Shown: positions 5,520 through 53,730 of the stretch, piece after piece
Layout: each line of letters opens with the position of its first letter
Position numbering within the stretch: the stretch's first letter is position 1
Origin: a virus
DNA: 64,000 nucleotides
IMG/VR virus record: IMGVR_UViG_3300044833_000092
Span: 3,541-67,540 of that record
Direction: 5' to 3' (one strand)
The notes under the pieces: generated by a model
Told to the model about the DNA's origin: nothing
Databases searched by the model: none
The model's input: the letters and a program-made list of their open reading frames with translations, nothing else
Position numbers and translations under genes: made by a program

Positions 5520-5572
5520 GGGTGGTGGATTTCCACCACCTAGGCTATTGCGGCGCACCAATAGGAGGCAGA

Positions 5573-6319
5573 GTGGCACGGGTCAAAGCTATCGTCATCT
5601 GTACGCCGTCGCTGGGCGTCGTGTCGTTCTGGTGGGCCAGACAGATGATGAGTCTGGTTCACCCGCTCAACATCGGCAAAAAATTTGCGTTCGTCCAAGA
5701 CGACGGCGACAGCGGTGTAGCCGATACGCGCAACCAAATCGTCCATGACGTGCTGCGGATGGATAACGATACACTGGAGGTTGATTCGCTGTTTTGGGTG
5801 GACGATGACGTGCTGGTCATGCCGGGTGCGCTACTGGCCCTGTACAATCATCACGTCCCGATTGCCTCGGGCGTTTACTTTACCAAGTGCGAGCTGCCGG
5901 AGGCCCTGATCTTTCCAGGGCGATTGCACGGCACGGCCAAGTTCTATCCGAACGAGATTATCCGCGACGGCTGGGGCCACGGCATGGGCCTATGCCTCAT
6001 TAAGGCCGACGTGTACCGCAAGATGGCAGCGGCTGGCCTGGGAGTCGATCGTCACGGCAAGCCTGAGTGGTACAAGACCAGCAGCGACTTCAAGCTCGAA
6101 GGCAGCATGATCGACTGTGGCGGCACGGAAGATTTGTTCTTCCTGAACCGTGCCGGCGAGCTTGGCTACAAGACGGTCATCGATTGCACCAAGCACGCCT
6201 TTGGTTGGCACTACGACCTGAAAACTGGCCTGGGCTATCCTCAGAAGCAGTTCAACCAATGGGCGCATTGTCAGCCAATCGCTTGGGAAACCAACGACGG
6301 TCCTGTAACCTGGGAGTGA
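5573..6319 (+). CDS. GT-A fold (family 2-like) glycosyltransferase
   Basis: GTG start after AGGAGG; TRNQIV, LFWVDDDV (DxD), GMGLCLIK, TEDLFF motifs. Confidence 0.75.
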   Translation: MARVKAIVICTPSLGVVSFWWARQMMSLVHPLNIGKKFAFVQDDGDSGVADTRNQIVHDVLRMDNDTLEVDSLFWVDDDVLVMPGALLALYNHHVPIASGVYFTKCELPEALIFPGRLHGTAKFYPNEIIRDGWGHGMGLCLIKADVYRKMAAAGLGVDRHGKPEWYKTSSDFKLEGSMIDCGGTEDLFFLNRAGELGYKTVIDCTKHAFGWHYDLKTGLGYPQKQFNQWAHCQPIAWETNDGPVTWE

Positions 6320-6322
6320 GCA

Positions 6323-6853
6323 ATGGCGACCAAGAATCTGGAGAATTTTGAGACGCCCGGCGTCGTCGCTTGCACTCAGACTTCCCTGGGCATTGGCTCG
6401 TCGCGCGAATCGGCCGTCATCGACAACTCGGCGCTGCAATTTCTTGACGACGTAATTACGCTGACATTTACTATCGCCAGTGGCACGCCGTCTACGTCGG
6501 GGGCCAGTGTCAACATCTATGTCGCTGCCTCGCCGGATGGCACGCTGTTCCCAAGGGTCCAACTGCTAACCGGCGCTCCATTTCAGACTGGGGCTGGCGA
6601 CGCCTCGGTCGGAGCCTTGGGAGCGCCGAACAATTTGCGGATGATTGGCTCGTTCGGCTTGCAAACCACTGTTAGCGTTGGCGAGCGCACGTTTACCACT
6701 GAGCCCATGTCGGTCATGCAGGCGCTCGGCTACCTTCCCAAAAAGTACAGCATTATCATTGAAAATTCGACTGGCGTGGTGTTCTCTTCGTCCACCACCA
6801 CCACGGCTCAGAATCTGAACCACTCTCCGCTTTCGACCACCAGCGGCAACTGA
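6323..6853 (+). CDS. Beta-rich virion protein
   Basis: GGAG SD; Ser/Thr/Gly-rich beta-strand pattern in the virion module. Confidence 0.55.
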   Translation: MATKNLENFETPGVVACTQTSLGIGSSRESAVIDNSALQFLDDVITLTFTIASGTPSTSGASVNIYVAASPDGTLFPRVQLLTGAPFQTGAGDASVGALGAPNNLRMIGSFGLQTTVSVGERTFTTEPMSVMQALGYLPKKYSIIIENSTGVVFSSSTTTTAQNLNHSPLSTTSGN

Positions 6854-6860
6854 GGGCTCT

Positions 6861-8423
6861 ATGGTCCCGCAGGCGCTGCTTGTGGCTCCGCCAGTCAGTG
6901 TTGCCAGCGGCACGCTGGTTGGCATTGTTTCGTTCAGGGACAACTTGCGCCATCGCGTTGGCGGCGTGGTCGTCGGCGTCGTGGGCGGCACCACGGACCC
7001 GACGAGCGTAACGGACGATCAGAACAACCTCTACACGATGGTCACGTCCGCGAACGCCAGCGGAGCCATTCGTTCGTCCCTGTGGTATTGCCAGAGGATT
7101 TTCGGTTCTCCTAAGAGGATTACGGTCAAATGGCCCAGTAACGGCGCGGCCATTGTGCTGTCGGCTGTCTTTACCGATCAGCCGCTCCTGGTCACAACCT
7201 CAACAACCAATGCTGCAAACACAGGATCGTTGACGGTTGGTCCCTTGGCCGCCTCGAAGTCCGGCGAGGAATTAGTGTTCAGTGTCTGCGCCAGCAGCGG
7301 CAACCTCAACGGCGGGCCGGCAGGCTTCGTGTCTGTCAACCAGAGTGTCGCCGGTGGCTTCGGCTATGCGCTGCCGCCGAAGCGCGTCGCTACTTGGACC
7401 AATTCAGTTTCTGTTATCACCACAGCCTGTATTGCTTCCTTCCGGGCAATCCCGGTCGCAACCAATCCGTGGGCTTTCGATCCGATCGTCAAGTTTTCCG
7501 GCGGTACGCCGCCGGCTCCGCTGACAGCCTCGTACGCCGGAACGCTCACTTGGACCGGCACTTTTGTCGTTACCGGCGTCGATGCGCCATTTGGCACCAC
7601 GCTGACCTGGATGGCCACGGCGCTGCCGACCGGAGAGGACGTGGCCTATTCGGTCCTGCTCACTTGGACCGGCACGTTCGTCCTGGCCGGCGTTGATGAC
7701 TTCGTTGGTCACACGCTCACTTGGACCGGGACATTCCTGGCGGTCGGATTGGATGCCACCTGGGCAACCACGCTCACCTGGACCGGAGTGGACGCGGCAA
7801 CCGGGATCGATGAACAACCCCTGGTGACTACCTTGACTTGGACCGGGGCGTTCGCCATCACCGGCATCGATGCCACCTGGGCAACCACTCTCACTTGGAC
7901 CGGGGTGGACACAGCAACCGGCATCGATGAACAACCCTTGGCCGATACTCTTACCTGGACCGGCGCAGAAGTGGCCACTGGCGTCGATGCTCATTGGGCC
8001 ACTACCTTGACGTGGACCGGGACGTTCGCCGCCACCGGCGTCGATGCGCGGTTTGCCCATACGCTCACCTGGAGCTGGCTCATCGAGGCTAACCGTGCCG
8101 CCGAGTCCGCCGTATTTTCCCTGTTGCTCTGGAGCGACCATTTTAGCTTCGACCAGGCTCCGCGCGTGATTCTCAATTGGTTCGATAGCTTCGACATTCC
8201 AGGCGTAGTGCGGCCGCCGGCCTCGGCGTCGTTTGCCGATACGCTTACCTGGACGGAGGCGGCCGGCAGCGACTTGTCATGGTTCGATCGTTTGACGTGG
8301 ACCTCAGACCTGGGAAACCCGGTGTCGTCGGCGTTTTGGAGCGACACCTTGTTTTGGCACGACGCCAATGGCGGCTTCGATCCCAACGTCAACCTGCTTT
8401 CGACGGGCCGATACCGTCGCTAG
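6861..8423 (+). CDS. Fibre-like virion protein with TLTWTG repeats
   Basis: About ten 19-20 aa TLTWTG...G.D repeats; C-terminus FDPNVNLLSTGRYRR. Confidence 0.65.
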   Translation: MVPQALLVAPPVSVASGTLVGIVSFRDNLRHRVGGVVVGVVGGTTDPTSVTDDQNNLYTMVTSANASGAIRSSLWYCQRIFGSPKRITVKWPSNGAAIVLSAVFTDQPLLVTTSTTNAANTGSLTVGPLAASKSGEELVFSVCASSGNLNGGPAGFVSVNQSVAGGFGYALPPKRVATWTNSVSVITTACIASFRAIPVATNPWAFDPIVKFSGGTPPAPLTASYAGTLTWTGTFVVTGVDAPFGTTLTWMATALPTGEDVAYSVLLTWTGTFVLAGVDDFVGHTLTWTGTFLAVGLDATWATTLTWTGVDAATGIDEQPLVTTLTWTGAFAITGIDATWATTLTWTGVDTATGIDEQPLADTLTWTGAEVATGVDAHWATTLTWTGTFAATGVDARFAHTLTWSWLIEANRAAESAVFSLLLWSDHFSFDQAPRVILNWFDSFDIPGVVRPPASASFADTLTWTEAAGSDLSWFDRLTWTSDLGNPVSSAFWSDTLFWHDANGGFDPNVNLLSTGRYRR

Positions 8424-8456
8424 GGAGACAGGTGGTGGAAATCCACCGCCCTTGAA

Positions 8457-9374
8457 ATGGCGCTCCTTCCCGTACAAGCCAGCGTGGGCACCACCGGCAC
8501 CGGAACGGTCCGACCGACCGTCTTTCCGTCAACGGTGACGAGCGGCAATGGCGTGGTGGTTCTGGTGTCCTATGGTGCCAATACCTTAACGTCGATCACC
8601 GACACTGAGGGCAACGCCTATTTGCTGGCCGGCGTCGGTAGCTTCTTCGGAGCCGATCTGGCGGCCATCTACTATTGCGCCAACGTCACCGGCGGCCCGG
8701 TCTTTACGGCTACGGCCCACTTCTCTTCTTCAACGCCAGCCGAAATTATTGCCTTCGAGGTTCCTGGCAACCTGACTCTCCAGGCCGCCAATGCGTCCGC
8801 CGGCAACAGCGTCAATCCCGCTCCAGGCGCGGTCAACACTGGAGTCGTCAATACGCTTGTCTTTGTCGTTCTCAACAAGACCGGCTCCGTCATTACGCCG
8901 CCGGCTGGCTTCACCGAGGCTCGCAACACTGGCACGTCAGACGCTGCCTATAACCCCTATGCCACCGTGCAGGTGGGGCTCGATCCGCCCTGGTCAACCA
9001 CGGCCGGCACGCCCTGGGCCGCGGCGATCGCAGCCTTCTCGTCCACCGCAGGCGTCGGGCCGGCAACCGGCTTGGTGTTTGGAAACCTTACATTCTCGGG
9101 CTCATTCACCTTTGAGCCCGTCCTGGGCAACCTGCTGCGCTGGACGGCCTTCTTCGTCACCGGCGCTCCGATTGTGGCTAACGCTTCTTGGAGCGACACT
9201 TTGACCTGGAGCGTCAGCGCCATCAACGACTTGAACCTCAAGGATTTCATCCTGTGGACCGGGGCTAAGTTTGGCTTGGCCGAGTCGTACGACCGCCTGA
9301 CTGATACACTCTCATGGGCAGGGCGGTTCGAGCCAGACGTGAACTTGCTGGCGGCCGGCAGGTACAGGAGGTAG
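8457..9374 (+). CDS. Fibre-like virion protein, paralog of 6861-8423
   Basis: TSITDTEGNAY vs TSVTDDQNNLY; DTLTW repeats; C-terminus FEPDVNLLAAGRYRR. Confidence 0.65.
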   Translation: MALLPVQASVGTTGTGTVRPTVFPSTVTSGNGVVVLVSYGANTLTSITDTEGNAYLLAGVGSFFGADLAAIYYCANVTGGPVFTATAHFSSSTPAEIIAFEVPGNLTLQAANASAGNSVNPAPGAVNTGVVNTLVFVVLNKTGSVITPPAGFTEARNTGTSDAAYNPYATVQVGLDPPWSTTAGTPWAAAIAAFSSTAGVGPATGLVFGNLTFSGSFTFEPVLGNLLRWTAFFVTGAPIVANASWSDTLTWSVSAINDLNLKDFILWTGAKFGLAESYDRLTDTLSWAGRFEPDVNLLAAGRYRR

Positions 9375-9376
9375 GC

Positions 9377-9580
9377 ATGGTCAGCGTTGAAGAACGCATA
9401 CGCCAGCTCAAACAGGTGCCGCTTCTGGAAATCGAAATCGCCCGACTCAAGATTGAACTTGCCAGGGTGCAGCAGCGCCGCTGCGAGCTATGCCGGGAAA
9501 ACCAACAGCTCAAGACAGGTGGTGGAAATCCACCACCTGCTTCCCTTCGTGAACGAACGACGATGGCGGAGAATTTGTAA
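9377..9580 (+). CDS. Small coiled-coil protein containing motif A in frame
   Basis: AGGAGG SD; heptad-like IRQLKQ..LEIEIARLKIELARVQ. Confidence 0.55.
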   Translation: MVSVEERIRQLKQVPLLEIEIARLKIELARVQQRRCELCRENQQLKTGGGNPPPASLRERTTMAENL

Positions 9581-9694
9581 TGGGAAAAGGCCGTCCGCAC
9601 AACTTGGTTAACTTCAGCACGGACGAACTTATCGCCGAAATTAGAAAGCGAGGGGTGGAAAATTCCTAATTTATTTGCTGAAACCCCGGATGAC

Positions 9695-11986
9695 GTGGTT
9701 CTCATTGCCGATGGGTGGGGTCCAGTGTTGCGCTGGAACGGCTTCACCAATCAGGCGAGCCCGGCCGGCGTGCCGGCTCCGTCCAAGCTGCCGACCATGA
9801 CATTCTCCGGCACCGGCCCTATCGTCGGCGCGTACCGCTGCTTTCTGCGCTACATCGACGCCAACGATTACCCCGGCAACCTGACGCCCATCGCCCCGGC
9901 TGACGTGATTGCCCTGTCCCGCTCCGGTGTAGTCGCCAAGGCTGTGGCTGGCACGCCGATTGTATTGACCATCACGGCTCACGGATTCAATAATTCGACC
10001 ACCATCAAGACGACGGGCATCGCCGGCATCGTGGAGGCCAACGGCGTTTTCAAGGTGACGGTCATCGATGCCAACAATATCTCTCTCAACGGTTCGACCG
10101 CCGACGGGCTCAGCGAGTTCTACGGCGGCGGCGGGACTTGGATCGCCGGCACCGGCTTGGTGACGTACGGCAATCTGGAGGCTCCAGCGGACCCGCGAGT
10201 GGTGCGCCGTCAGATACTCCGCAACACCGATGGCCAGGAAGCGGTGTTCTACGTCGATATCGACACCACCGACCTGTCCAGCGCTACTCTTACCAGTACC
10301 CAGGACGACAACGCGCTCCAGACGGGCATCGCCGTGCCTTTTCTCGACTCCACTGGCAAGGACGTTTCCAATGTCAATGGCGAGCCGCCTAACAACAAGC
10401 CCTTGATCGTCTATCATCGAGGATTGGTTTTTATGGCTGGCGACGTGCGTTACACCGAGGGCGCTGTTGCCTTGACGTTCGGCTCCAATCAGGTGCATGG
10501 TATTGCAACGGAGTGGCGAGCGGCCGCGGCTGGCCGCTTCATCTACGTCGTCGGTGCGAACAAGGCGTACACGATTGCAGCCGTGGACGAGTTGAATCAG
10601 ATCGTCACCCTGACAGAGCCGTACCTTGCACCGTCGCAGCCGTACGCTTTCTATGCCATTTGTTCGGCCGAGCCGGATCAGCGCACCGTCTACTATTCCG
10701 ACGCCAGCCACGCCGAGGGCTTCTCGCCGCTTGTCGGCTTTACCATCGCCTCCGACGGCGACGACTTCACCGGCGAGTTGTCCTACGATTCGTTCCTCTA
10801 CATTCTGGAACGCTCGCATATCTACAAACAGACGTATCAAACCGATCCCAACACAGACGGTGCCGTCTACCAGAGTTCCGATCGCGGCTGCGTCAACCAG
10901 CGCTGCGCCGTTAAGGCGGGTGAGAGCGTCTACATGCTGGACGAGAAGGGCATTCACGCCTTTGGCGGCCGCAACGCCGGCGATCGCAGCGATCCGGTGC
11001 AGACGCTCTTTCGCCCAGACGTGCCGGGGCCGAAGATCAACTTCGCGGCGGGCCGTTTCTTTCACGGTGTCTTGGATCAGACGACCGAAGTTATACGCTG
11101 GTTCGTTTCGCTCTCGGGAACCTATCTCCCCCGCCACGCCATTTGCTATCAATACGATCTTGACCGCTGGTGGATCGAGGAGTATCCGTGGCCGATATCC
11201 TGCTCATTCGTCGGCCGCCTCTACCGCCGGGCTCCGCTGGAGACGTGGGGAGCCGGGCGCTTGCAGGTATTCCTGGGCTCGACCGGCCGCCGCGTGTTCG
11301 CCGTTGGAGCTTCGCCGCTCGACGGAGTGCCACCACTCAAGGAGTACGCCTGCCCCATCACGACCGCCGGGTTTAACTGGTTGGAAACGCCGTCAGCGCT
11401 GCCGCCGTGCGTCAATGCTCCAGTGGTGATTGTCGGCGGCCGTGGCAAAGGACAGCGGCGCATTGTGGTCTCTATGTCGGGAACGAGACTGCGCCTGCGC
11501 GATCCGTGGCTGGTGCAGCCCGACGTGACCAGCACCATTCAGGTTGGCGGTATCGAGTGGAGCTGGAAGTCTGGCTGGATGGAATGGGCTGACGAAGAGA
11601 CGACCAATCCGCGAGCGGTGGAAGTATCTTTCGGGCCTACGACGGTGCCCAGCGACGTGACCTTGAACCGCTTCCGTGACCGTAGCGATCAGGCTGACGT
11701 GATTGCTCTTGACCGTGCCGAGGACGGCGTGTTGGCTCGGGCCGGCGAGAGTGACGTATTGCTCTCGTTGGAACAGTTGCCGGGTGGCTTCGGACAGGCC
11801 CTGATGTTTTCGGGAAAGCAGTCGTACACTCGTGGGCCACAGGTTATCAGTGTGGGACTCAATGGTGTTGGCACCATCGATCCGGTGAAGCTCTATCAAA
11901 TCGACGTTGACGGCGTTGTCGATCCGACTGGAATCATTCCCGATCGTCAGCTGCGCCGCCAGGGCGAAGGCGGGGGAGGGGGATAG
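9695..11986 (+). CDS. Nozzle / DNA stabilisation (tail tubular B-like) protein with inserted beta domains; start uncertain
   Basis: Beta-propeller-type motifs (YHRGLVFMAG, VYYSD, DRGCVNQRC, VYMLDEKGIHAFGG, WSWKSGW); TAHGF...EANG FCCH-like insert. Confidence 0.7.
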   Translation: MVLIADGWGPVLRWNGFTNQASPAGVPAPSKLPTMTFSGTGPIVGAYRCFLRYIDANDYPGNLTPIAPADVIALSRSGVVAKAVAGTPIVLTITAHGFNNSTTIKTTGIAGIVEANGVFKVTVIDANNISLNGSTADGLSEFYGGGGTWIAGTGLVTYGNLEAPADPRVVRRQILRNTDGQEAVFYVDIDTTDLSSATLTSTQDDNALQTGIAVPFLDSTGKDVSNVNGEPPNNKPLIVYHRGLVFMAGDVRYTEGAVALTFGSNQVHGIATEWRAAAAGRFIYVVGANKAYTIAAVDELNQIVTLTEPYLAPSQPYAFYAICSAEPDQRTVYYSDASHAEGFSPLVGFTIASDGDDFTGELSYDSFLYILERSHIYKQTYQTDPNTDGAVYQSSDRGCVNQRCAVKAGESVYMLDEKGIHAFGGRNAGDRSDPVQTLFRPDVPGPKINFAAGRFFHGVLDQTTEVIRWFVSLSGTYLPRHAICYQYDLDRWWIEEYPWPISCSFVGRLYRRAPLETWGAGRLQVFLGSTGRRVFAVGASPLDGVPPLKEYACPITTAGFNWLETPSALPPCVNAPVVIVGGRGKGQRRIVVSMSGTRLRLRDPWLVQPDVTSTIQVGGIEWSWKSGWMEWADEETTNPRAVEVSFGPTTVPSDVTLNRFRDRSDQADVIALDRAEDGVLARAGESDVLLSLEQLPGGFGQALMFSGKQSYTRGPQVISVGLNGVGTIDPVKLYQIDVDGVVDPTGIIPDRQLRRQGEGGGGG

Positions 11987-11988
11987 CT

Positions 11989-12669
11989 ATGGGCATAGAG
12001 TCTTTTTTCGGCGCTCAGGCCGATCGCTTGCTCCGCAAAGAGTGGGGTGACGACGTGGACAGTTTCGCGCAGGAACTGGTGGCCATGTTCACGTCTAAGG
12101 AACCGATCAACCTGACCGGACCTGTGACAATCGATCGTGGGAACGCCGACAATGTTCCGGCACTCACGATCAACGATGGTACTAACGGCAGCTCAGCGCC
12201 GATCGTCATTAATCGTACCGATGGCACCGGCTCGTCGCAGCCAAACGTCGATAGCGGCGGCGGCTATTCATGCTGTGGCTCCAGTTCGCAAAATGCTCCT
12301 CCCAAGATGCCGCCGGTCGATCAAGGCAAATTCCCGCCGGTTCCACCTGTGACGCCGGCTGGACCTCCGGGCGGTCTGCCTGATCCCAACATGCCCAGGC
12401 GTGAGTTTAGCGGCACTATCCTGATAAAAGTCGTGCAGGGCGAGCCGGATGTCTTCGGCTGGAATGGTCAACAGGTGCCGTTCATAGCTACGGGCTGTGT
12501 CCCGTACAAGCCGCCATCGGTGAATGGCCCAACGAGTGCTTTCGATCCTAGCCTGAATCAGCCCGAGCCCGTCACGGCGCAGCTGGCGGCGTTCATGGCA
12601 AAGTGGAGTCTCGACGGTTACGATCTCATCGCCGACACCGTAGCCGGTCCCGGTTCTCCTTGTGCTTAG
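11989..12669 (+). CDS. Hypothetical virion-module protein
   Basis: SD and tight packing after the nozzle-like gene. Confidence 0.55.
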   Translation: MGIESFFGAQADRLLRKEWGDDVDSFAQELVAMFTSKEPINLTGPVTIDRGNADNVPALTINDGTNGSSAPIVINRTDGTGSSQPNVDSGGGYSCCGSSSQNAPPKMPPVDQGKFPPVPPVTPAGPPGGLPDPNMPRREFSGTILIKVVQGEPDVFGWNGQQVPFIATGCVPYKPPSVNGPTSAFDPSLNQPEPVTAQLAAFMAKWSLDGYDLIADTVAGPGSPCA

Positions 12670-12734
12670 GGCGAGCCGGACTATAATCTCAGGGGTGGTG
12701 GAAATCCACCACCTGAAAAACCAGGGGGCGTGCC

Positions 12735-13457
12735 ATGCCTTATGCGAATGTTGGTTCAGTCGATCCGATGCCGTACGCTGGCTCGGTACAACAGATGTCT
12801 GATAACTTTATGCCGAGTCTGCAAGGTCAGGCCAATCAAATGAATGCCAGCCGCGGAGGCGGAGGCGGAGGAGGCGGCGGCGGGGGCGGCTTGCCCGGCG
12901 TCGGGGCCGGCGGTTTCGTACAGAAAACATTTGAGAACCAGTACGACAACCCTGGGCTCGACCTTCAGAAGGCCCAGCTTGCTGCGTCCAACGCCCACTG
13001 GAACGCCGCCTTCGGCGCTCTTCAGGGTCAGCTTGGCGCTGGTGGACAACGCTTCTCGCCGGCGGCCGGCCTGGGACCGCATATCACCACCGGCGGCGTT
13101 TGGAACCCGCAGCAGGTGGATCAGCAGGTGAACGCTGCTCGGGCCAAAAACGATCAGACGGCGGCCACGCAAAGTCGGGCCGCTGCCCAGGGCGCTGTTG
13201 GCCGTGGCTTCGCCGGCAACTCGCCCATGATCGCGGCGCTCCAGGGCCAGATAGGCGGAGCGAACATTGCCGCCGACGCTTCCAGTGAGGCCGGCATCCG
13301 CAGCAACGCCGCGCAAATGAACGCGAACCAGACGCTGAGTTCGCAGACCGAGGCTCAGAACCAGTTCGCTGCCCAGCAAGCTCAAGAGACGCAACGGACT
13401 GCGCCGCTCTACGCCCGCCAGAACGCCTTGATCGCCGCCCTGGCCGGCATTGCCTGA
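12735..13457 (+). CDS. Ejection / DNA pilot-type internal virion protein
   Basis: Ala/Gln/Gly-rich helical protein with GRGFAGNSPM; position typical of podovirus core proteins. Confidence 0.55.
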   Translation: MPYANVGSVDPMPYAGSVQQMSDNFMPSLQGQANQMNASRGGGGGGGGGGGGLPGVGAGGFVQKTFENQYDNPGLDLQKAQLAASNAHWNAAFGALQGQLGAGGQRFSPAAGLGPHITTGGVWNPQQVDQQVNAARAKNDQTAATQSRAAAQGAVGRGFAGNSPMIAALQGQIGGANIAADASSEAGIRSNAAQMNANQTLSSQTEAQNQFAAQQAQETQRTAPLYARQNALIAALAGIA

Positions 13458-13487
13458 ACTATTGGTGCGCCGCAATAGGAGTCTATC

Positions 13488-14813: not shown

Positions 14814-14829
14814 CAGAGCAGGTGACACG

Positions 14830-15285
14830 ATGCCTAATTCTAACATTCCTCAAGCGCCGCCTCACGCCTTGCCGCCGGGCGGCAGGTTCGTTGAGCCTCC
14901 GTCTGCCGGCGGTCGGGTCATTCAACGATCGGCCGATGGAGGTTCCGTCAATGTCACGATGCCTGACGGCACGCTGCATCAGTGGGATGCAAGCGGCCCG
15001 CGGGGCTCGGCCGGCCGATACTTGGGCTCCTCTGACGGCGGCCAGCCGCAAGCTGGCCAGACTCAGTTGCCGTCGCCGCCAGCTGAAACCCAAGATCAGC
15101 AATTGACCCGCTTGGCGGCTTATCAGTTTGGCACCGCTAACAGATACTTGGCGAACGGGCCGCGTGTGCCGGGTCCGAGCGATGCGACTCTCGATGCCAA
15201 TGCTGCTGGCTTATGGGACAAGGCGTTCGCGGCGGTTCCGCTGCAATTGAATCCGGCAGCGTTTGGCCTCGGAGGACCACAGTGA
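14830..15285 (+). CDS. Hypothetical protein
   Basis: AGGTG SD; in operon. Confidence 0.5.
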   Translation: MPNSNIPQAPPHALPPGGRFVEPPSAGGRVIQRSADGGSVNVTMPDGTLHQWDASGPRGSAGRYLGSSDGGQPQAGQTQLPSPPAETQDQQLTRLAAYQFGTANRYLANGPRVPGPSDATLDANAAGLWDKAFAAVPLQLNPAAFGLGGPQ

Positions 15286-15366
15286 TGGCAGAAGAGAGTC
15301 AGTGGCTGACGAACCCACGATCGTCCAGTTTCAGGGTGGTGGAAATCCACCACCTGACCGGGAGGC

Positions 15367-15573: not shown

Positions 15574-15588
15574 CCAAGGAGCCTCTCG

Positions 15589-16143: not shown

Positions 16144-16209
16144 CCCCCATATTTGCCAGCGCCACGCGACGATCTCCCTTGGGGGTAGCCTTGGCGTCCT
16201 CCAAGGGAG

Positions 16210-45648: not shown

Positions 45649-45684
45649 TTTCCTTACTCATCGCCCTGTCCACAGGAGGTTCTG

Positions 45685-46860
45685 ATGACCGGCTTTATGA
45701 TCGCTTTCCTGGTCCTCGCTTTGGGGCTCATCCTCTGGAGTCGAGCGGCCCCTTGGGTGGAAATTGTCGAGACGACCATTGACGATTACATCCGCGACGT
45801 GGAAGACGCCATCATGCGCGATTACAAGCTGCTGGCGCTCATCCAAAGTCGCGGCAACGTCCAGTTCAACAAGTCCGGCCTCAAGATGAATTGGAAGGTC
45901 AAGTATCGGCGCGCCATTCCGAAGGGCTACGCCGACATGGACGTGCAGACGTTCCCACGTCGCGTGCGCCACAAGACGGCCGTTCTCGGCTGGCGGGCCT
46001 ATGCCCTGGCCGAAGCCGTCAGCAAGCTGGACCGCTTGATGAACCGCGGGGCGGCGGCCATCGTCAACATCATCGCCGACAAGGTGCAGACGATGGTGGA
46101 CGATATGCAGACGTTCTTCAACGAGCAGGTGTACGTTGACGGCGAATTGGCCGGCAACGAGAAGGGCATCCACGGCCTGGAATCCATGTTCGGCTTCTCG
46201 GGCATTTCGCTCAACCAGCCGATCGCCTTGCCCTCGGACGTGTACGCGGGCATCAACACCGATCTTGGCTTCTACAACGGCCAGTGGGATTTGGCTCCGT
46301 CAGGCCCCGGTGCCGGCTTGCATGTCTGGCCCTCGGGCAAGGGCACGGTCGATTTCGACTTCTACAGCCCGCTCTTGGTGGATTACACCAACCCCTTCTG
46401 GAACGAGACGCCCAACATCTGGGCCAACACCTGCACGGAGGCGGTTCGCTACGGCCTCATCAACGGCCGTAAGAACAAGAGCAAGTCCGGCATGATCGAC
46501 GCCGTGTTCCTCGAACGCGAGTTGTACCGCCAGTGGGTCGAGAAGACCGCGGCCAAGGAGCGGCTGGTTATCAACCAGGGCGGCGGCGGCGATGGCCGCA
46601 CGCTCACCAGCCTGGGCTACGGCGACACCTTCAATTTCGAGGGTGCCGAGATTACCTACGAGTTCGGTACGCCGCCGCTAACCGGCTACGGCGTCAACGT
46701 CGATCAGATCGAGCTTGACTCCATGCAGGAGCGCCTCTTCCAACCCAATGGCCCCTACGAGCATGAGGTTGACAAGTCGATCCGGTATGACATTGATTTC
46801 TTCGGGAACTTCCGCTTCGATTCGCCGCGCTACTTCGTGAAGTGGTATCCCTACTCCTGA
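45685..46860 (+). CDS. Major capsid protein with hydrophobic N-terminal leader
   Basis: AGGAGG SD; TTIDDYIRDVEDAIMR.YKLLALI, YVDG...GIHGLES, FFGNFRFDSPRYF; 391 aa after scaffold. Confidence 0.8.
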   Translation: MTGFMIAFLVLALGLILWSRAAPWVEIVETTIDDYIRDVEDAIMRDYKLLALIQSRGNVQFNKSGLKMNWKVKYRRAIPKGYADMDVQTFPRRVRHKTAVLGWRAYALAEAVSKLDRLMNRGAAAIVNIIADKVQTMVDDMQTFFNEQVYVDGELAGNEKGIHGLESMFGFSGISLNQPIALPSDVYAGINTDLGFYNGQWDLAPSGPGAGLHVWPSGKGTVDFDFYSPLLVDYTNPFWNETPNIWANTCTEAVRYGLINGRKNKSKSGMIDAVFLERELYRQWVEKTAAKERLVINQGGGGDGRTLTSLGYGDTFNFEGAEITYEFGTPPLTGYGVNVDQIELDSMQERLFQPNGPYEHEVDKSIRYDIDFFGNFRFDSPRYFVKWYPYS

Positions 46861-46866
46861 CCCCTT

Positions 46867-46900
46867 CCCCAGGTGGTGGATTTCCACCACCTGGGGTTTA
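46867..46900 (+). terminator. Motif A hairpin with extended stem after the capsid gene (possible terminator/attenuator)
   Basis: CCCCAGGTGGTGGA-TT-TCCACCACCTGGGG then TTT. Confidence 0.45.
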
Positions 46901-46936
46901 CCCGCGATCTTCACTCGTTTCTTAGGAGATTTCTTC

Positions 46937-47548
46937 ATGTGGGAAGCAGCTTTGCCGTGGGAGCGCGGCTTCACGGCCAACTTCGGTCAGGCCGTCGTGG
47001 ACCCGCTCAGCTTCAAGAATCTGGAGGGGATGGAGTATTTCCTCCGCGACAGTTCCCCGAACTACCCTTCGGAGGAAACCAAGCGGCCGGTCAAGCTCCG
47101 TCTGGTCCGCAACAAGAGCGGCATCAACCTCCTGCCCAATCGTCTTGTGGTAATGAATCCACTGGACAACTTCAATAGCACGCTCGGCTACGCGGCGGCC
47201 GCGGACGGCGAGTGCGCTTACCCGGTGGACGAGTATCTGCCCGCCACCGGCGTCGCCCCCAACGACCTGTTCTACGTCGTCACCGGCGGCCCGGCGCAGG
47301 TTATGCTGCCGGCAGTCTCCCCGGACTCCGTTGTTCCCGGCGACTTGCTGGTCGTCAAGTTCCTGACCAGCAACGTCACTGTCCTCGCCGGCCGGGCCGG
47401 CAAGGCTGTGTTCCCAGATTCGTACGCCAGCGCTGCGGACGGGCTCGCCATCGCGGCGATGGTTCGCAACGCTTTCAAGAGCCTTTCCACAATGGCCGCC
47501 GTGAATGGCCTTGTGAAGGTGCAGGTTCCCTGGACGACCGCCTTCTAG
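46937..47548 (+). CDS. Capsid decoration/cement-like protein
   Basis: Follows capsid; VDEYLPATGVAPNDLFYVVTGGPA. Confidence 0.6.
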   Translation: MWEAALPWERGFTANFGQAVVDPLSFKNLEGMEYFLRDSSPNYPSEETKRPVKLRLVRNKSGINLLPNRLVVMNPLDNFNSTLGYAAAADGECAYPVDEYLPATGVAPNDLFYVVTGGPAQVMLPAVSPDSVVPGDLLVVKFLTSNVTVLAGRAGKAVFPDSYASAADGLAIAAMVRNAFKSLSTMAAVNGLVKVQVPWTTAF

Positions 47549-47680
47549 AACGAAGTCGGTCCTAAGAGAAAGGAGTCCCCGGTTTTCCGTTGAACGGGCG
47601 TTTGGTTTTCTGCGCGACGGGCTGCGAGTGGGTGCCCTGCTCGCAGCCCGTCGTCGCCTAAAGATAAAGAGGAGCCGGTC

Positions 47681-48142
47681 ATGGGCAAAGGTAAGAGCAA
47701 GAGTAAGAGCAAGAGTCGCTCTTACTGGAAGCGTAAGTACACCAAACTTGCGTTCAACAGCCAAGCGGCCATATCGAAGATTTTGTTCCGCGAGCGTCAC
47801 GCTCAGTACGAGCTGCGCTTCACTTCGCTGTCTACTGCAACCACCGCTGCCTTCGCCGCGGCCGAGAAGGCCTTGGCCAAGGCCGATGCGGCAATGGAGA
47901 AGCGCTTCGATTCTGTGAACGAGTTTCGCCAGACGCTCACGGATCAGGCGGCCACCTTTATTCCGCGAGCCGAGGCCGAGCAGCGTATCAAGGTCATCGC
48001 CGATAAGGTGGAATCCCAGGGTTCGGTGTCCGACAAGTCGATCGGACGGATAAGCCAAAGTGAGCGCGGCTGGAACTATCTGATCGGAGCCCTATTGGTC
48101 GCTGCCGCCTGGGCCGCGGTATTCGTCAGTCACAAGCCTTAG
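47681..48142 (+). CDS. Coiled-coil protein with C-terminal TM helix (holin/spanin-type candidate)
   Basis: EKRFDSVNEFRQTLTDQ; C-terminal WNYLIGALLVAAAWAAVF. Confidence 0.55.
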   Translation: MGKGKSKSKSKSRSYWKRKYTKLAFNSQAAISKILFRERHAQYELRFTSLSTATTAAFAAAEKALAKADAAMEKRFDSVNEFRQTLTDQAATFIPRAEAEQRIKVIADKVESQGSVSDKSIGRISQSERGWNYLIGALLVAAAWAAVFVSHKP

Positions 48143-48214
48143 CCTTGCCCAAACGGCCGGGATGGCTTAGAACAGGTGGTGGAAATCCACCACCTGTTTC
48201 TTTTGGAGCCACCC

Positions 48215-49165
48215 ATGTCCCAAGAGCCGCCGCTGATCCGCGATATCGTCATCGCCACCAATCCATTGCAGTATTGCACCCTCAAGCGCTTGCCGCCCGA
48301 GCTGCGCATCCCCGCGGCCGACTTGGCGGTCCAGCACAATCCGGCCAACCAGCCGCGGTTGGACCACTTCCACCCCTCCATGCTGGCTCCTGGCGTCGAG
48401 CCCGCGGAGTTCATTGCCCTGTTGACCAGCAAGTATTGGGGCACCAAGGGCGTCAAGCTGACCGTCTCGTTCATGGAACGCACGCCGACCGACTTGGCCA
48501 ACCGCATCCTGCTGCATATGAACGCCTGGGCGCAATGGGCCAACGTCACCTTCCTGCTGACCAACGGACAGGGCCAGATACGCATTTCTCTCGGACGCGG
48601 CGGCTACTGGAGCTATCTCGGCGTCGATAACCTCTCCATCGATCTACGTCAGCAGACCATGAATCTGGAACAGTTCACCATGCAGACGCCCGAGAGCGAG
48701 TTTCATCGCGTCGTGCGCCATGAGACGGGCCATGTCCTCGGCTTCCCGCACGAACATGCACGCCCGGCGATCGTGGCTTTGCTCGATCCGGCTCGCACCA
48801 CGGCGTTCTTCGAGGCTACCCAGGGTTGGACTGCCCAGGAGATCAACGAGCAGATACTCACGCCCCTGGACGAGAGCGACCTTCTCGATACGCCGGCCGA
48901 CGTGAAGTCCATCATGTGCTATATGTTCCCCGGTTCCATCACCAGGAGCGGCCAGCCGATCCCCGGCGGCAACGATATCGACCCCTCGGACGGAGAGTTT
49001 GCGGCTCGCATCTATCCCAAGGCGATCGTGCCGCCCACGCCGCCTGTTCCTCCGGTGCCGCCAGTTCCGCCAGTGGTTGGTTCGCCGACTGAGGTAATCA
49101 ACTTGGACCTGAAAGCCAAGAACGCCATTCTCCCTGGGGACTGGACTGTACAGGTACGTTCGTGA
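48215..49165 (+). CDS. Metzincin Zn metalloprotease (astacin/matrixin-like)
   Basis: HETGHVLGFPHEH (HExxHxxGxxH) and SIMCY Met-turn. Confidence 0.9.
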   Translation: MSQEPPLIRDIVIATNPLQYCTLKRLPPELRIPAADLAVQHNPANQPRLDHFHPSMLAPGVEPAEFIALLTSKYWGTKGVKLTVSFMERTPTDLANRILLHMNAWAQWANVTFLLTNGQGQIRISLGRGGYWSYLGVDNLSIDLRQQTMNLEQFTMQTPESEFHRVVRHETGHVLGFPHEHARPAIVALLDPARTTAFFEATQGWTAQEINEQILTPLDESDLLDTPADVKSIMCYMFPGSITRSGQPIPGGNDIDPSDGEFAARIYPKAIVPPTPPVPPVPPVPPVVGSPTEVINLDLKAKNAILPGDWTVQVRS

Positions 49166-49440
49166 TAGTATCTGTCGGCTTACCGTTCTGTTGGTTCCTC
49201 TTGTGGAGTCGTATCATGCGCATGGTCGTCTTCGTCGTTCTAATGTGCCTCTGGCTGTTCGGCGGCGGTTTCATCGCCTACGGAGCCCAGCAAGCCGTCA
49301 ATCCCGTCGCTTTCGGTGTCGTCACTCTGCTCCCCTGGCTTTGTGTGGCCATTCTCGGCTGGGAAATCTACCGGGGAGGGGCAGGTCCGGTTGTCTACCC
49401 TTATCCAGAGGCATATCCGCCGCACCAGCCGCGGCCCTGA
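49162..49440 (+). CDS. Small membrane protein (holin candidate)
   Basis: Two or three TM segments. Confidence 0.5.
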   Translation: MIVSVGLPFCWFLLWSRIMRMVVFVVLMCLWLFGGGFIAYGAQQAVNPVAFGVVTLLPWLCVAILGWEIYRGGAGPVVYPYPEAYPPHQPRP

Positions 49441-49587
49441 ATCCTATTGCGGCGCACCAATAGCCAAGGTGGGATCGAGCAATGAGCGGCAAATTGAAAA
49501 TGTCAAGTATCAAACAGGCGTACAAGCAGGCAAGAAAAAGCCTGAAGAACCGCCTCAAGAAACTAAAGCTCATCAAGGAGGCGTTTA

Positions 49588-49821
49588 ATGATCGGCCAGC
49601 CACGGAGCCCGCACCATCACTTTCCGCCGACGCAAATCGGACAGACGTTCCCGCACAGCAAATGGACGGTGATAGGCGAGCAGTATAAGATCAACGACTT
49701 CGTGTGGGTCGTGCCAGTACAATGCAAGTGCGGCACCAAGGCGGCCATCCCGCGCCAGCGCCTGTTCAAGGGCCTCTCACGCAGTTGCGTGAAGTGTGCC
49801 CGCAAGAGAGGTTGGAGGTAG
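49588..49821 (+). CDS. Small Zn-ribbon protein like HNH-associated N-terminal domains
   Basis: IGQTF...KWTVIG...QCKCG...SRSCVKC; GGAGG SD. Confidence 0.6.
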   Translation: MIGQPRSPHHHFPPTQIGQTFPHSKWTVIGEQYKINDFVWVVPVQCKCGTKAAIPRQRLFKGLSRSCVKCARKRGWR

Positions 49822-49891
49822 GGTGGTGGATTTCCACCACCCTACCCTACTGCCGGGTTTCCCAGGTGTTTTCGCCCATTGGAGGACAGTT

Positions 49892-50593
49892 ATGCTTCGT
49901 CAGCGTGCTTTACTACTGTCGTTCACGGCGGCCATTGCCGTCGTGACGCTGGCTCTCGCTCCTGGCTTGCTCGCCAAGCCGACCGAGATTCAGGTGACGA
50001 CTATCCGCGTTAAAGATGCGGATGGTCGCGTCCTCGCTACTCTTTCAGTTCCGTTGGTTGGCAGCGTTGAGGTTGTCTCGCCTCCCGGCGTGCCCACGCC
50101 GGTTATCGTGCCAACTCCTCAGCCGCCGCCGTTGCCCACGCCTCCCCCGGTAGTGCCGGTGCCGGCCCCGCCGCCGGTCGAGCCTCCGGCCCCGGTGGTC
50201 CCGCCAGTGACTCCGCCAAAGCCTCCGCCGCCGGCCCCGCCAATTGTGTCAACGGAGCCGGTGGCGTTTGCCATCGTCATCACCGACAAGCGCCAGGCGA
50301 TCGCCGTTGGCCAAGCAGCGGCCCTCCAGGCCGGTTCAACTCTCAAGGCGTCAGTCGAGGCCAAGGGCATCGGCTTCGCACAGTTCGACGCACTGAGCGC
50401 CGCCGTGCAGAACACGCCGGCTGACAAGGTGCCCGGCGGCGACTATAAGCAATGGTTGGGCAACCCCAAGTTCAAGCTGGCCCCAGCGCTCGGTACGCCA
50501 TGCTTGGTACTGGTCGATAAGGGCGGCCATCCTGTCAAGGCGCTTCCGTTGCCACCGGACGCGCCGAGTATCCTTGCTGCCATCCTCAACTGA
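49892..50593 (+). CDS. Secreted protein with Pro-rich linker
   Basis: GGAGG SD; signal peptide MLRQRALLLSFTAAIAVVTLALA. Confidence 0.65.
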   Translation: MLRQRALLLSFTAAIAVVTLALAPGLLAKPTEIQVTTIRVKDADGRVLATLSVPLVGSVEVVSPPGVPTPVIVPTPQPPPLPTPPPVVPVPAPPPVEPPAPVVPPVTPPKPPPPAPPIVSTEPVAFAIVITDKRQAIAVGQAAALQAGSTLKASVEAKGIGFAQFDALSAAVQNTPADKVPGGDYKQWLGNPKFKLAPALGTPCLVLVDKGGHPVKALPLPPDAPSILAAILN

Positions 50594-50611
50594 TTACCCA
50601 AAGGTCACACT

Positions 50612-51895
50612 ATGTCTTGCCTTCCCATCACGATCTCCGTCGTGACAACTGCCTTCGCTCTTGCCGTGACTTCATTGGCCAGGGCTGAGCCCGAGGGCCT
50701 GATACTGCCCACCCGCGAACTGATCGGCTTGGCCGATCTGATGATGACTCCCAAGCCGGGCTTACTCTGGCCGCGCTGGCGCTACCTGTCCTTTGCCGCG
50801 GCCTTGCCCGAGGACATTGACAAGCGCAAGGCGGCCGTGCGTTTTGCCCTGGCGGCCCTGAACCGTACCGCTGCCACTGAGGCTCAGTACCTTGCCCAGG
50901 TGACGCCGCTGCTGTGGGGCGTCGATACCGCTACGCTCGGCTGGCCGGACAGCGTTTGGGAGAGCTACGGCCGCACGGAGCATTACTACGAAGAGGCCGG
51001 CAGCGAAACCCTGAAGCTGTTCTTCAAGCTCAAGGCCGGCACCGAACGGCCCATCTTGCGCGCTGATGAGTTCATCGACGGTTGCTTTGCGCCGGAGCGT
51101 TACGCCGCGGCGCTGGCGATCCCGCAAACGAAAGAGGATTTTCTCAATACCTTTCTCGGTCCGCGCGGGGCGGCCGGAGCGGACCGGGCGTTCGGCATCA
51201 TCAGCGAGAAGTTGACAGTGGCGAACTTTCCCGGCAAGGTGGCCCGCTTCAAGCCGGCGGATCGTCCCGCCGTTTGGATGCGAGTGCTTTACGGCGACGA
51301 TCGCGGCCTCAACGAGCAGCGGCTGCATCCGGCGGATATCGACGGGGAACATACCGAGTTCAGTTGGGAGCTTCCCAACGGCCTGGGTGCCTACACCACT
51401 TACGATGCCACCGGCCGCTTGGCGCTGACGGTTAGTACCAAGCTCAGCAAGGACAAGCAGGGTCATTCGGTGCGGCTGGGCATCAGTTGCATCGAATGCC
51501 ATACCGCTGGCATTCGCGGCCTGGAGAACGCCGACGATCCCGATAAACTTCTTCTTCTGAACATCAACGCCGCCGAATGGAACAAGGAGCGGCTGATGTT
51601 CCTGGCTGGCGAGGACCAGAAGCGTTGGACTAATTCCCTGGCGGCCATTAACGGCCTTTCGCCGTCACGGAACGCCGATGCTCGCCGCAACATTATCGAT
51701 GACTTTGGCCATGATCTGACGCCTGGAGAGGCCGCCAGGGAATTGGGTCTGAGCGATTGGCCCGACGACAAACCGACGCCGCGGAAGAATTTTGGCGATG
51801 CTGTGGCCTTGTCCGCGGCGATGAAAGTCAATAAATTGTACTTAGAAGCGGCTCGCCAACGCATGTTGGCGTCCGGACAAATCAAGTCCCCCTAA
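50612..51895 (+). CDS. Secreted protein with a single CxxCH (possible c-type haem site)
   Basis: Signal peptide ending ARA; GISCIECH; ELPNGL.AY. Confidence 0.6.
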   Translation: MSCLPITISVVTTAFALAVTSLARAEPEGLILPTRELIGLADLMMTPKPGLLWPRWRYLSFAAALPEDIDKRKAAVRFALAALNRTAATEAQYLAQVTPLLWGVDTATLGWPDSVWESYGRTEHYYEEAGSETLKLFFKLKAGTERPILRADEFIDGCFAPERYAAALAIPQTKEDFLNTFLGPRGAAGADRAFGIISEKLTVANFPGKVARFKPADRPAVWMRVLYGDDRGLNEQRLHPADIDGEHTEFSWELPNGLGAYTTYDATGRLALTVSTKLSKDKQGHSVRLGISCIECHTAGIRGLENADDPDKLLLLNINAAEWNKERLMFLAGEDQKRWTNSLAAINGLSPSRNADARRNIIDDFGHDLTPGEAARELGLSDWPDDKPTPRKNFGDAVALSAAMKVNKLYLEAARQRMLASGQIKSP

Positions 51896-51914
51896 ACAAC
51901 CGGGAGGGTAGATC

Positions 51915-52397
51915 ATGTCGAGGTCACTGGTCACGTTAGCCGCATTGCTATCCTGCACCGCTGGCGTTCAGGCCCAGCAGTTTGTCGATTCCGCCGGGAA
52001 TCGCTATCAACTGGTCCCCATGCAGCAGCAGCAGCAGTTTCAGCAGGTGCCGGCCGCGGCTCCGCTGGCACAGACATTGGCTCCGTCGAGCCTGTTGCCG
52101 CAGTCTTTCCAGCAGCCGCAGCAGTTTGCCCAGGTCCAGCAGGTGCAACAGCAGCAGTTTCAGCAGGTGCCGGTGCAGCAGTTTGCCCAACAGCCGCAGC
52201 AGCAGCTTATTCAAGTGCCGCAGCAGCAGGCGCAAGTGCGCTACGTAGCCCTCGGCGGCGTCGGCCGCGGCACTGTCGGCGGCTGTGCCGGCGGCAACTG
52301 TGGTGCTGCCCGCGGCACCGGCGGTTGCTCTGGTGGCAACTGCGGTGGCGGCGGCGGTGCCTCCGCCGGCCGCGGCCTCTTTGGCCGCCGGCGTTGA
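51915..52397 (+). CDS. Secreted Gln-rich protein with GGC.GGNC repeats
   Basis: Signal peptide ending VQA; C-terminus GRGLFGRRR. Confidence 0.65.
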   Translation: MSRSLVTLAALLSCTAGVQAQQFVDSAGNRYQLVPMQQQQQFQQVPAAAPLAQTLAPSSLLPQSFQQPQQFAQVQQVQQQQFQQVPVQQFAQQPQQQLIQVPQQQAQVRYVALGGVGRGTVGGCAGGNCGAARGTGGCSGGNCGGGGGASAGRGLFGRRR

Positions 52398-52433
52398 CCC
52401 TCAACTGTTCGCCCGTCTTTTCCAAAGGAGTCC

Positions 52434-53078
52434 TTGATGTTTCGCTTCGCAATGGCAACCCTGGTGACATTTGCCTTGGCTCTGGAAGCCGCGGCCCATC
52501 CGCCGGCCCAGGTGACGTACATCCCTGGCCCCCAGGCTCAGGTGCAAGTCGCTTTTGCGCCGCGCCGGGCGTTCGCCGCCCCGATCTTCGCACCGCTTCC
52601 GGTCGCCTCCTACAGCAACGCCGTGACTTTCGTGCAGCCGCCGCCAGCGGCCACGTTCTTCATGGCCCCGCAGCCCGCTCCGATCGTGGTGCAGCAACCG
52701 CAGCAGCAGATCATCGTGCAGCAGCAGCAGCCGAGCGTGACCTACGTTCAGCCGCCGCCACAGCAGCAAGTGATCGTGCAACCGCAGGAGCAGGTGATCG
52801 AACCGCCGCCCGCCGCTCCGCTGGTGCAGTTCCAGCAGGAGGCGCAGGTGCAGTACGTTCAGGCTCCGCAAGCGGAAGTGCGCTTCGCCGTTCCGCGGCC
52901 ACGACTGTTTGCACCGTCCCCGGCGTTTGTCACTTACGCTCCGGCGTTTGCACCGGCGCTCGTGGCTTATGCTCCAGTCGCCTACGCCGGCGTGGCTGGC
53001 GTGCGTCATCACCTGGGCTTCATTGAGCGCCACGATATCAAGCGTGCGGCCATACAAGCCGCCCGCGCCGCTCAGTAA
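52434..53078 (+). CDS. Secreted Gln/Pro/Ala-rich protein
   Basis: AAGGAG SD; signal peptide ending AAA. Confidence 0.65.
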   Translation: MMFRFAMATLVTFALALEAAAHPPAQVTYIPGPQAQVQVAFAPRRAFAAPIFAPLPVASYSNAVTFVQPPPAATFFMAPQPAPIVVQQPQQQIIVQQQQPSVTYVQPPPQQQVIVQPQEQVIEPPPAAPLVQFQQEAQVQYVQAPQAEVRFAVPRPRLFAPSPAFVTYAPAFAPALVAYAPVAYAGVAGVRHHLGFIERHDIKRAAIQAARAAQ

Positions 53079-53080
53079 GG

Positions 53081-53332
53081 ATGGCTCCCTTGTTCTTCCG
53101 CAACGTAACCATCACCGTTGAAATCGGCCCCAAGGCCGAGGCGTTGGCCAAGGCGTATATCGCCTTGTTGCCCAGGCCGAACGCCATGACCCAGGCCGAG
53201 ACGGACGCCATCACGGCCGTCCTGACGCAAGAGGCGGCTACCCTGAAGGGGTTCAGGAACGATCCGAACCTGCCTTCGACGCCGCCGGGGCCGCCGCCAG
53301 GAGCCGAGACGACCGGCCGCCCGCTTTATTGA
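53081..53332 (+). CDS. Small helical protein
   Basis: MTQAE...NDPNLP shared with the next gene. Confidence 0.55.
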   Translation: MAPLFFRNVTITVEIGPKAEALAKAYIALLPRPNAMTQAETDAITAVLTQEAATLKGFRNDPNLPSTPPGPPPGAETTGRPLY

Positions 53333-53381
53333 CTCACTCTTTTCTGTAACCCGTTCGCCCAAGAACACAGGAGATTTCTCA

Positions 53382-53636
53382 ATGGTAGACCCGAACCTGC
53401 AAGCCGCCGTGGACGCGGTTGCCAAGGCCACCACCGACGTTGGGACGACCATCAAGTCGCTCGATGGCCTCATTACCACCAACATGACACCGGCCGACGT
53501 GAAGACCGTGACCGACACGCTGACCGGCATTGCCACCGCTTGCACGGCGATGGCCAACGATCCGAACGTGCCGGTGCCGGTGCCGGTGCCGCCGCCAATT
53601 CCGGCCGCGGCCCGTAAGGCCGGCCCGCGTCCGTAA
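53382..53636 (+). CDS. Small helical protein, paralog of 53081-53332
   Basis: AGGAG SD; MTPAD...NDPNVP. Confidence 0.6.
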   Translation: MVDPNLQAAVDAVAKATTDVGTTIKSLDGLITTNMTPADVKTVTDTLTGIATACTAMANDPNVPVPVPVPPPIPAAARKAGPRP

Positions 53637-53730
53637 TTTCAGGTGGTGGATTTCCACCACCCCTCCGCGGCCAGCCTATTGCGACGCCGCAATAGGCTGG
53701 CCGTTTCCTTACCCAATCAAGGAGTCAACC

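Follow-up and report, generated by a model that had tools for sequence, protein, structure and literature searches.

Dispersed palindromes without a known role appear in many phage genomes, and several described systems offer points of comparison for them. Bacterial REP and BIME elements are intergenic hairpin palindromes that lie past stop codons and form mosaics with other short motifs, the stoperators of Cluster A phages are asymmetric 13-14 bp sites whose orientation follows transcription and to which the immunity repressor binds, and the operator sites of plasmid RK2 stand at promoters, their order being set by the promoter. A close parallel is found in the Cluster O mycobacteriophages, where a 17-bp dyad repeat centred on TTT/AAA is present 34 times; the authors who described it suggested dimeric regulators as the readers, noted recombination between copies, and, having asked whether the orientation of the centre follows transcription, found little evidence for it (PMC4351075). 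Composite elements have been described as well. The SAS/ESAS elements of Cluster K consist of a repeat fused to the ribosome-binding site before the starts of some genes, with an optional upstream inverted repeat (PMC3203893); on the IncP-1 plasmid RK2, OB palindromes are the loading sites of KorB, a clamp of the ParB family, which KorA brings to a halt at OA palindromes (PMC11790492); and the PeSLs of T4-type phages are composite stem-loop/promoter cassettes between genes that serve as recombination points (PMC4122927). Here, we describe two families of 20-bp dyads, motif A and motif B, and the seven places at which they adjoin, in a 64,000-nt stretch of viral DNA (the window) that comprises bases 3541-67540 of the single 67,540-bp contig IMGVR_UViG_3300044833_000092.

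All seven A-B composites reported by a first-pass annotation of this DNA were recovered at the coordinates that it gave (Table 1), and our own gene calls agree with it that three pairs stand in operons transcribed rightward and the other four in the leftward arm. Genes were called with a home-made codon-score caller rather than a standard gene finder, and all distances to start codons given here hang on those calls. In every pair A lies to the left of B on the plus strand: the count over the whole genome is seven A-then-B and zero B-then-A, and no B-left-of-A pair was found around the 30 A and 24 B sites even when degenerate partners with as many as 7 mismatches, at distances of up to about 70 nt, were admitted. 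The annotation was also right that the order is independent of transcription. In the plus-strand operons A stands by the upstream stop codon and B by the Shine-Dalgarno (SD) sequence, so that the three composites at 5521, 16675 and 53642 are ordered stop-A-B-SD-start; in the leftward arm the roles are swapped, and the composites between genes at 26523, 30194 and 39233 read stop-B-A-SD-start along the transcript. The uniform order is thus real, and the case against an order that follows transcription depends on the four leftward-arm pairs only.

The meaning that had been attached to this order, that A and B form a selected two-component signal, is not borne out. Of the intergenic gaps, 54 measure 20 nt or more; A is present in 26 of these and B in 21, and the two share 11 against 10.1 expected from independent placement (Fisher p = 0.78). 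The spacers between A and B differ in both length and sequence (Table 1), so the pairs are not copies of one unit. Most copies stand apart from any composite, with 23 A sites and 16 B sites outside the seven (which hold eight B copies, as one composite has two), and the families are distributed differently over the genome, A evenly (coefficient of variation (CV) of the spacing 0.47) and B in clusters (CV 1.07). Solo copies of A lie 0-13 nt past stop codons and solo copies of B occupy the gaps between stop codon and SD sequence, each in both arms; both positions in a gap are thus open to either family. Chance-level sharing, differing spacers and the solo copies in both arms together argue that the pairs are independent elements that co-occupy short gaps; the gaps are tiny, so any gap with both elements shows them 0-16 nt apart. 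The transcription-independent order of the earlier interpretation therefore stands, and its selected two-part unit, for which the composites show no enrichment, does not. Our own conclusion, held with a confidence that reaches about the midpoint of the scale, is that the intergenic dyads A and B belong to two families, separate from each other and specific to the lineage, and do not make up the halves of one signal. As matters stand, the main lesson of the locus is this independent placement of two families; firmer ground is offered by the even spacing of A and by a ParB-like protein that is a candidate reader.

Table 1. Motif families, A-B composites and candidate reader protein; positions are those of the window.
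Feature	Window position	Strand or setting	Description
Motif A, GGTGGTGGA-AA-TCCACCACC	1850..62956	no strand	20-bp perfect palindrome, A-tract centre; 30 sites in the genome
Motif A, starts (1/2)	1850, 5521, 8431, 9518, 12694, 15335, 16675, 21096, 23272, 26523, 28563, 30194, 32420, 33472, 34186		
Motif A, starts (2/2)	36825, 39233, 41049, 43907, 44569, 46872, 48175, 49822, 53642, 55055, 56388, 56550, 60659, 62937		
Motif B, CTATTGCGG-CG-CACCAATAG and symmetric variants	5545..61152	no strand	20-bp dyad, 24 sites
Motif B, starts (1/2)	5545, 13459, 16695, 21412, 26554, 30230, 31259, 32713, 33788, 35485, 36383, 37638		
Motif B, starts (2/2)	38064, 39263, 39558, 39589, 39991, 40799, 41069, 41090, 42894, 49444, 53676, 61133		
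Composite 1	5521..5564	plus-strand operon	stop codon, 1 nt, A (centre TTT), 4 nt, B, GAGG, GTG start at 5573
Composite 2	16675..16714	plus-strand operon	A, 0 nt, B, GAG, ATG at 16724 (1296-aa gene)
Composite 3	26523..26573	between two minus-strand genes	A, 11 nt, B; along the transcript stop codon, B, A, GGAGG, ATG
Composite 4	30194..30249	leftward arm	A (4-bp stem extension), 16 nt, symmetric B adjoining the stop codon of the UDG-like gene
Composite 5	39233..39282	leftward arm	A, 10 nt, symmetric B; A hairpin listed as a leftward terminator-like site
Composite 6	41049..41109	679-nt gap, leftward arm	variant A (GGTGGTGGAAATCCGACACC), 0 nt, B (1 mismatch), 1 nt, third, B-like copy (41090)
Composite 7	53642..53695	plus-strand operon	A (centre TTT), 14 nt, symmetric B with 8-bp extension
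ParB-like protein with HTH, 281 aa	56863..57708	+	candidate reader of one palindrome family (putative link)

Motif A is present at 29 sites in the window and at one outside it (genome position 2498). With up to three mismatches allowed, the window sites yield 52 strand-matches, against 0.03 predicted from shuffled sequence; the exact 20-mer is found at 23 of the 30 sites and an AAA/TTT centre at all of them. Twenty-six sites are intergenic (p = 6.5e-17), and copies recur about every 2.2 kb, considerably more evenly (CV 0.47-0.49) than in simulations with random choice of gaps (0.91; P = 5e-5). Folding predicts a strong hairpin for the motif as RNA, and 8 of the 30 sites carry copy-specific stem extensions of at least 3 bp (2% at random positions), which argues that hairpin or cruciform formation matters too. 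Within window 20001-60000, terminator-like sites cover 7 of the 20 A sites, most A copies being without a T-run; in total the two listings for this region hold 28 and 19 terminator-like sites, versus 19.4 and 14.9 in shuffles. The exact motif A pattern is not repeated in any of 185,579 representative genomes, which contain six single matches. An origin of the motif from host REP elements was rejected, each of these six being an unrelated local hairpin.

Six A copies lie in frame 0 of plus-strand open reading frames (ORFs), where they encode GGGNP(P/T)P (that is, GGGNPPP or GGGNPTP): those at 44569, 56388, 56550 and 62937, together with those at 9518 and 43907 in weaker ORFs. Two of them fall in the C-terminal part of a Rad52-like protein. 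All six have the AAA centre, coding for N where the opposite orientation would code for F, and this accounts for part of the plus-strand bias of motif A that is considered below. An 8-bp direct repeat, CCAGCCGG, stands on both sides of the copy at 44569, inside a 498-aa gene upstream of the capsid gene (null P = 0.002 per site). Together with the insert it lengthens the gene by 30 nt without a frameshift, in the manner of a target-site duplication; no other of the 54 A and B sites shows this. Two further likenesses of the motif were noted. Each of its arms, GGTGGTGG, is one base off the Chi octamer of E. coli, so that every A would place a Chi-like word on both strands; the likeness is probably a coincidence, as the corresponding motif of a relative (described below) does not have it. 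Its layout, with 9-bp inverted arms about an asymmetric 2-bp AA centre, presumably recalls the crossover sites of serine invertases, and a 324-aa serine recombinase is encoded on the minus strand at window 27036-28010 (Resolvase N domain, E = 5e-29; PHROG integrase/invertase).

With about 30 near-invariant copies that are not repeated elsewhere, motif A is an analogue, by kind and not by descent, of the dispersed dyad repeat of Cluster O. Like that repeat (in Corndog TGTTCGG-NNN-CCGAACA; PMC4351075), it is a short perfect inverted repeat with a TTT/AAA centre and invariant arms, and the likeness extends to the copy number (more than 30 in a genome of about 70 kb), to the placement of many copies in short gaps and of some in genes, and to absence from hosts. 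It differs in that its arms, GGTGGTGGA and TCCACCACC, are unrelated to TGTTCGGNNNCCGAACA and in belonging to another phage lineage, one with an SU10-type portal; moreover, the second family B, the copy-specific stem extensions and the significantly even spacing are further differences in the genome described here.

Motif B gives 28 strand-matches at 24 sites (up to three mismatches; 0.01 predicted from shuffles), with the exact 20-mer at 12 of them. All 24 sites are intergenic, and the leftward arm holds 17. At 10 sites the motif lies 8-12 nt before a called start codon with an SD sequence (GAGG or GGAG) directly abutting; in our own count of SD-flanked copies (n = 11) the SD-proximal half is X in six and Y in five, so that the orientation to the gene is mixed. 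Folding of the common, asymmetric form is no stronger than that of shuffled sequence (z scores of -0.8 and 0.0); the symmetric variants, of which there are four, do form strong hairpins. A consensus scan of window 20001-60000 listed no sigma-70-like promoter at motif B sites, and Rfam 15 gave no match in the window at gathering score, either for A or for B. At window 39558-39608 two degenerate B copies, inverted and 11 nt apart, make up a larger palindrome of 51 bp. One sequencing run, probably that of the source sample, carries this DNA as assembled contigs, and these contigs break at the 51-bp palindrome. Rearrangements that might be read from contig "joints" in the run were rejected: the sides of the joints measure 20-26 nt, which is the length of the motifs, and they were taken as cross-matches between repeats.

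Motif B resembles the Cluster K SAS in standing at a fixed short distance from the start codon and abutting the SD sequence, at the 10 sites given above. SAS, by contrast, is asymmetric, contains the SD sequence and keeps one orientation, whereas B is a dyad of mixed orientation; likewise, the order of parts in ESAS follows transcription, which the A-B order ignores. Both A and B, as dyads of mixed orientation to transcription, also differ from stoperators. If real, the unusual point of the composites would be an order of parts that lies outside the frame of the gene, unlike that of SAS/ESAS, PeSLs and the RK2 operators; no description of a genome-frame order of two phage repeat families was found in the open-access papers searched.

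The composites themselves are heterogeneous. Of their seven A copies, two carry the centre in the opposite orientation (TTT on the plus strand) and one is the variant with CCGACACC; three of the seven B copies are symmetric variants, each three mismatches from the consensus. Their predicted folds range from two tandem hairpins of -50.5 kcal/mol in composite 7 to a weak structure in composite 6 (z score of -1.0). Directly to the right of the A-B-B cluster of composite 6, in the same 679-nt gap, TTGACG and TACACT stand 19 nt apart on the plus strand (window 41160-41195; seen by eye). This is a possible rightward promoter, which the consensus scan passed over because of its long spacer.

Searches for relatives provided one informative comparison. 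No GenBank phage matched this genome (megablast and tblastn), and no IMG/VR contig matched motif A or motif B as an exact pattern. Homologues of the capsid protein at 63-76% identity exist, as proteins, and 122 related loci were found through the capsid at identities of at most 48%; of the loci that reach 9 kb, L081/G001 alone showed a dispersed repeat comparable in its hairpin form. G001 (L129 plus L130; 31.3 kb, capsid 47% identical) carries a 24-bp dispersed palindrome of its own, ACTTCGGCTCA-AA-TGAGCCGAAGT, with the same AAAT centre as motif A and unrelated arms, and this motif is in no other IMG/VR record. It is present in 10 perfect or near-perfect and 10 asymmetric copies (ACTTCGGCTCATTTGATACAAAGT), at 20 evenly spaced sites from 361 to 30678 (CV 0.43), the asymmetric copies lying mostly 10-13 nt from a start codon and abutting the SD sequence. 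No second, B-like family was found in G001. As one family serves there both as palindrome and as SD-abutting form, a composite of two families is not a trait conserved in the group. Two more distant relatives, L106 and L109, have dispersed words that are asymmetric; in L106, CCGCCTGGATCATCC occurs in five copies, all on the capsid strand (1684, 2086, 7843, 12159 and 15555), and its 11-mer core in eight. These words may be promoters or other polar signals.

We propose separate roles for the two families. Motif A is capable of forming hairpins, and some of its copies, those with T-runs, look like terminators; it may also be a docking site for a dimeric phage protein, as would suit the invariant arms, the A-tract centre and the existence of variants with one half-site intact. 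Motif B may be an operator-like site for a second dimeric protein, placed between the stop codon and the next ribosome-binding site, mostly before the small genes of the leftward arm. The best candidate for the protein that would dock at A is the ParB-like protein with a helix-turn-helix (HTH), which matches ParB-like families in PHROG (down to E = 2.3e-10), ParB/Spo0J chains in the PDB (E = 0.0035-0.0064, residues 49-184) and Pfam ParB_N at E = 1e-3, below the cutoff of that family. The stretch aligned to the CTP-binding box GERRWRA reads GHNRLMKA, which makes clamp activity doubtful. The Pfam scan took in 60 predicted proteins and left out about 35 small ORFs; among the 60, neither a repressor nor a KorA-like partner was identified. 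No homologue of the ParB-like protein was found in the G001 sequence examined, which shares only structural genes with this phage. The uniform A-left-of-B order most likely goes back to chance in a small sample, or to the way in which the sites originated, rather than to a directional machine that reads it.

How probable each source of the order is was weighed separately. That it lacks function and arose by chance among freely ordered neighbors is a reading to which we attach roughly even weight, and a number of observations count against it. Under random order, seven pairs alike have p = 2/128 = 0.016, and a genome-frame model fits the pairs about 120 times better than a transcription-frame or random-order one (1 versus (3/7)^3 x (4/7)^4; our own arithmetic). 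The nearer A lies on the left side for 19 of the 24 B sites (p = 0.007; 11 of 16 without the composites), and the four asymmetric B copies inside composites all have one orientation. On the plus strand the A centre reads AAA at 22 of 30 sites (22:8, p = 0.016), including 10 of 11 in the leftward arm, whereas the centre in Corndog leans to transcription; similarly, the asymmetric B core is on the plus strand in 14 of 20 copies (14:6, p = 0.12). In G001, the AAA centre is on the capsid-coding strand in 8 of the 10 perfect copies (five of six in the leftward arm), and 9 of the 10 asymmetric copies share one genome orientation, among them the sole leftward-arm copy, which thus departs from the orientation of its transcript. 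Without the four in-gene copies the bias of the A centre is 18 of 26 (p = 0.076), and non-coding A copies in the rightward arms are unbiased (8:7). Taken together, the strand biases are suggestive; they overlap, are individually weak and were found after the fact. A switch of the A centre between two domains (17 of 18 plus in genome 11971-48109, 5 of 12 elsewhere) was rejected, with a permutation P = 0.11 for all sites; the value of P = 0.01 appears only if the four coding copies are dropped post hoc, and it is not relied on.

The order may instead be historical, the A and B copies having been seeded or exchanged by a DNA-level process that preserves genome orientation, such as strand-biased copying in replication or recombination between collinear phages whose modules start with B and end with A, and then inherited unread; we consider this rather unlikely, if the least so of the specific alternatives. 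That the biases are partial (22:8, 14:6 and 19:5) fits a history better than a strict signal, and they persist in the leftward arm, where transcription predicts the opposite. The copies that are identical to the letter, 23 among the 30 of A and 12 among the 24 of B, suggest copying or conversion, one in-gene A copy has a flanking direct repeat, and dispersed repeats are documented sites of recombination in Cluster O (PMC4351075) and, as PeSLs, in T4-type phages (PMC4122927). Set against this, flanking duplications of at least 8 bp are missing at 53 of the 54 sites (only two reach 6 bp), the non-coding A copies in the rightward arms show no bias, and the Pfam scan of the 60 proteins turned up neither a RAYT/Y1 (HUH) transposase nor a homing nuclease. 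We consider a functional signal in the genome frame, of whatever kind, unlikely. In the form proposed by the first-pass annotation, an A-B order read by packaging, ejection, unidirectional replication or another process that runs one way, it is improbable: the identical order of all seven pairs whatever the transcription, the even spacing of A and the agreement between the plus-strand biases of A centre and B core would suit it, whereas the composites occur at chance frequency and leave 23 A and 16 B sites outside, both motifs are near-palindromes and would look almost alike to a machine arriving from either side, two of the seven composites have the A centre reversed but the order unchanged, and the strands show no compositional polarity.

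A clamp that would load at A, formed by the ParB-like protein, and slide until stalled by a second protein bound at B, so that it spreads to one side only, is decidedly improbable as the source of the order. The genome does encode a ParB-like N domain with an HTH, A is an evenly spaced palindrome, and two dispersed palindrome families that are sometimes adjacent, alongside a ParB-family protein, recall KorB/KorA, for which this mechanism is established on RK2 (PMC11790492). Here, in contrast to RK2, there is no clear GERRxRA box (GHNRLMKA versus GERRWRA) and no KorA-like protein among those scanned; B stands beside A at only 7 of the 30 A sites, and the G001 sequence examined holds no homologue of the presumed clamp. 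That strand polarity is written into near-palindromes throughout, through one-sided spreading of a clamp chromosome-wide or an order read by packaging or rolling-circle replication, is very improbable; if true, it would amount to an orientation code in a phage, with a logic comparable to that of CTCF/cohesin or KOPS. More generally, an order that truly follows the chromosome would point to a genome-wide DNA-level process and provide a handle for finding it. Least credible of all is a transcription-level cassette of the PeSL type, with A as the terminator or transcript-end hairpin and B as the promoter or operator of the next gene. The three rightward-arm pairs, ordered stop-A-B-SD-start, and the 7 of 20 scanned A sites that are terminator-like agree with it, but all three clear leftward-arm cases have the reverse order (B then A) along the transcript, B lacks promoter-like hexamers in the region scanned, and the orientation of the B core to the gene is mixed (Y in 5 and X in 6 of 11); PeSLs, moreover, are directional and follow transcription, which the order here ignores. 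Chance among freely ordered neighbors thus remains the reading we prefer.

The contig (GC content 61.8%) has ends that share a 127-bp overlap and is most likely a circular assembly with an arbitrary start, so the genome ends are not given by it. Our gene calls define, in genome coordinates, a rightward block (353-24154), the leftward arm (24157-46124) and a second rightward block (47692-67221). The GC skew is weak and flips with the gene strand, an asymmetry linked to transcription only, and a replication polarity read from composition was rejected on this ground. In addition to the SU10-type portal and a capsid protein with 88 metagenomic homologues besides itself, recognizable genes encode an SNF2-type helicase, a DUF6094 methyltransferase, a second helicase, a primase and the Rad52-like annealing protein, together with the serine recombinase, a uracil-DNA glycosylase (UDG)-like protein and the ParB-like HTH protein. 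Directly past the primase gene (window 62250-62345), a GC-rich hairpin between runs of A8 and A5 resembles a bidirectional terminator; behind it the 8-mer GCAGACAT is repeated in tandem about five times, and these repeats could be the iterons of an origin.

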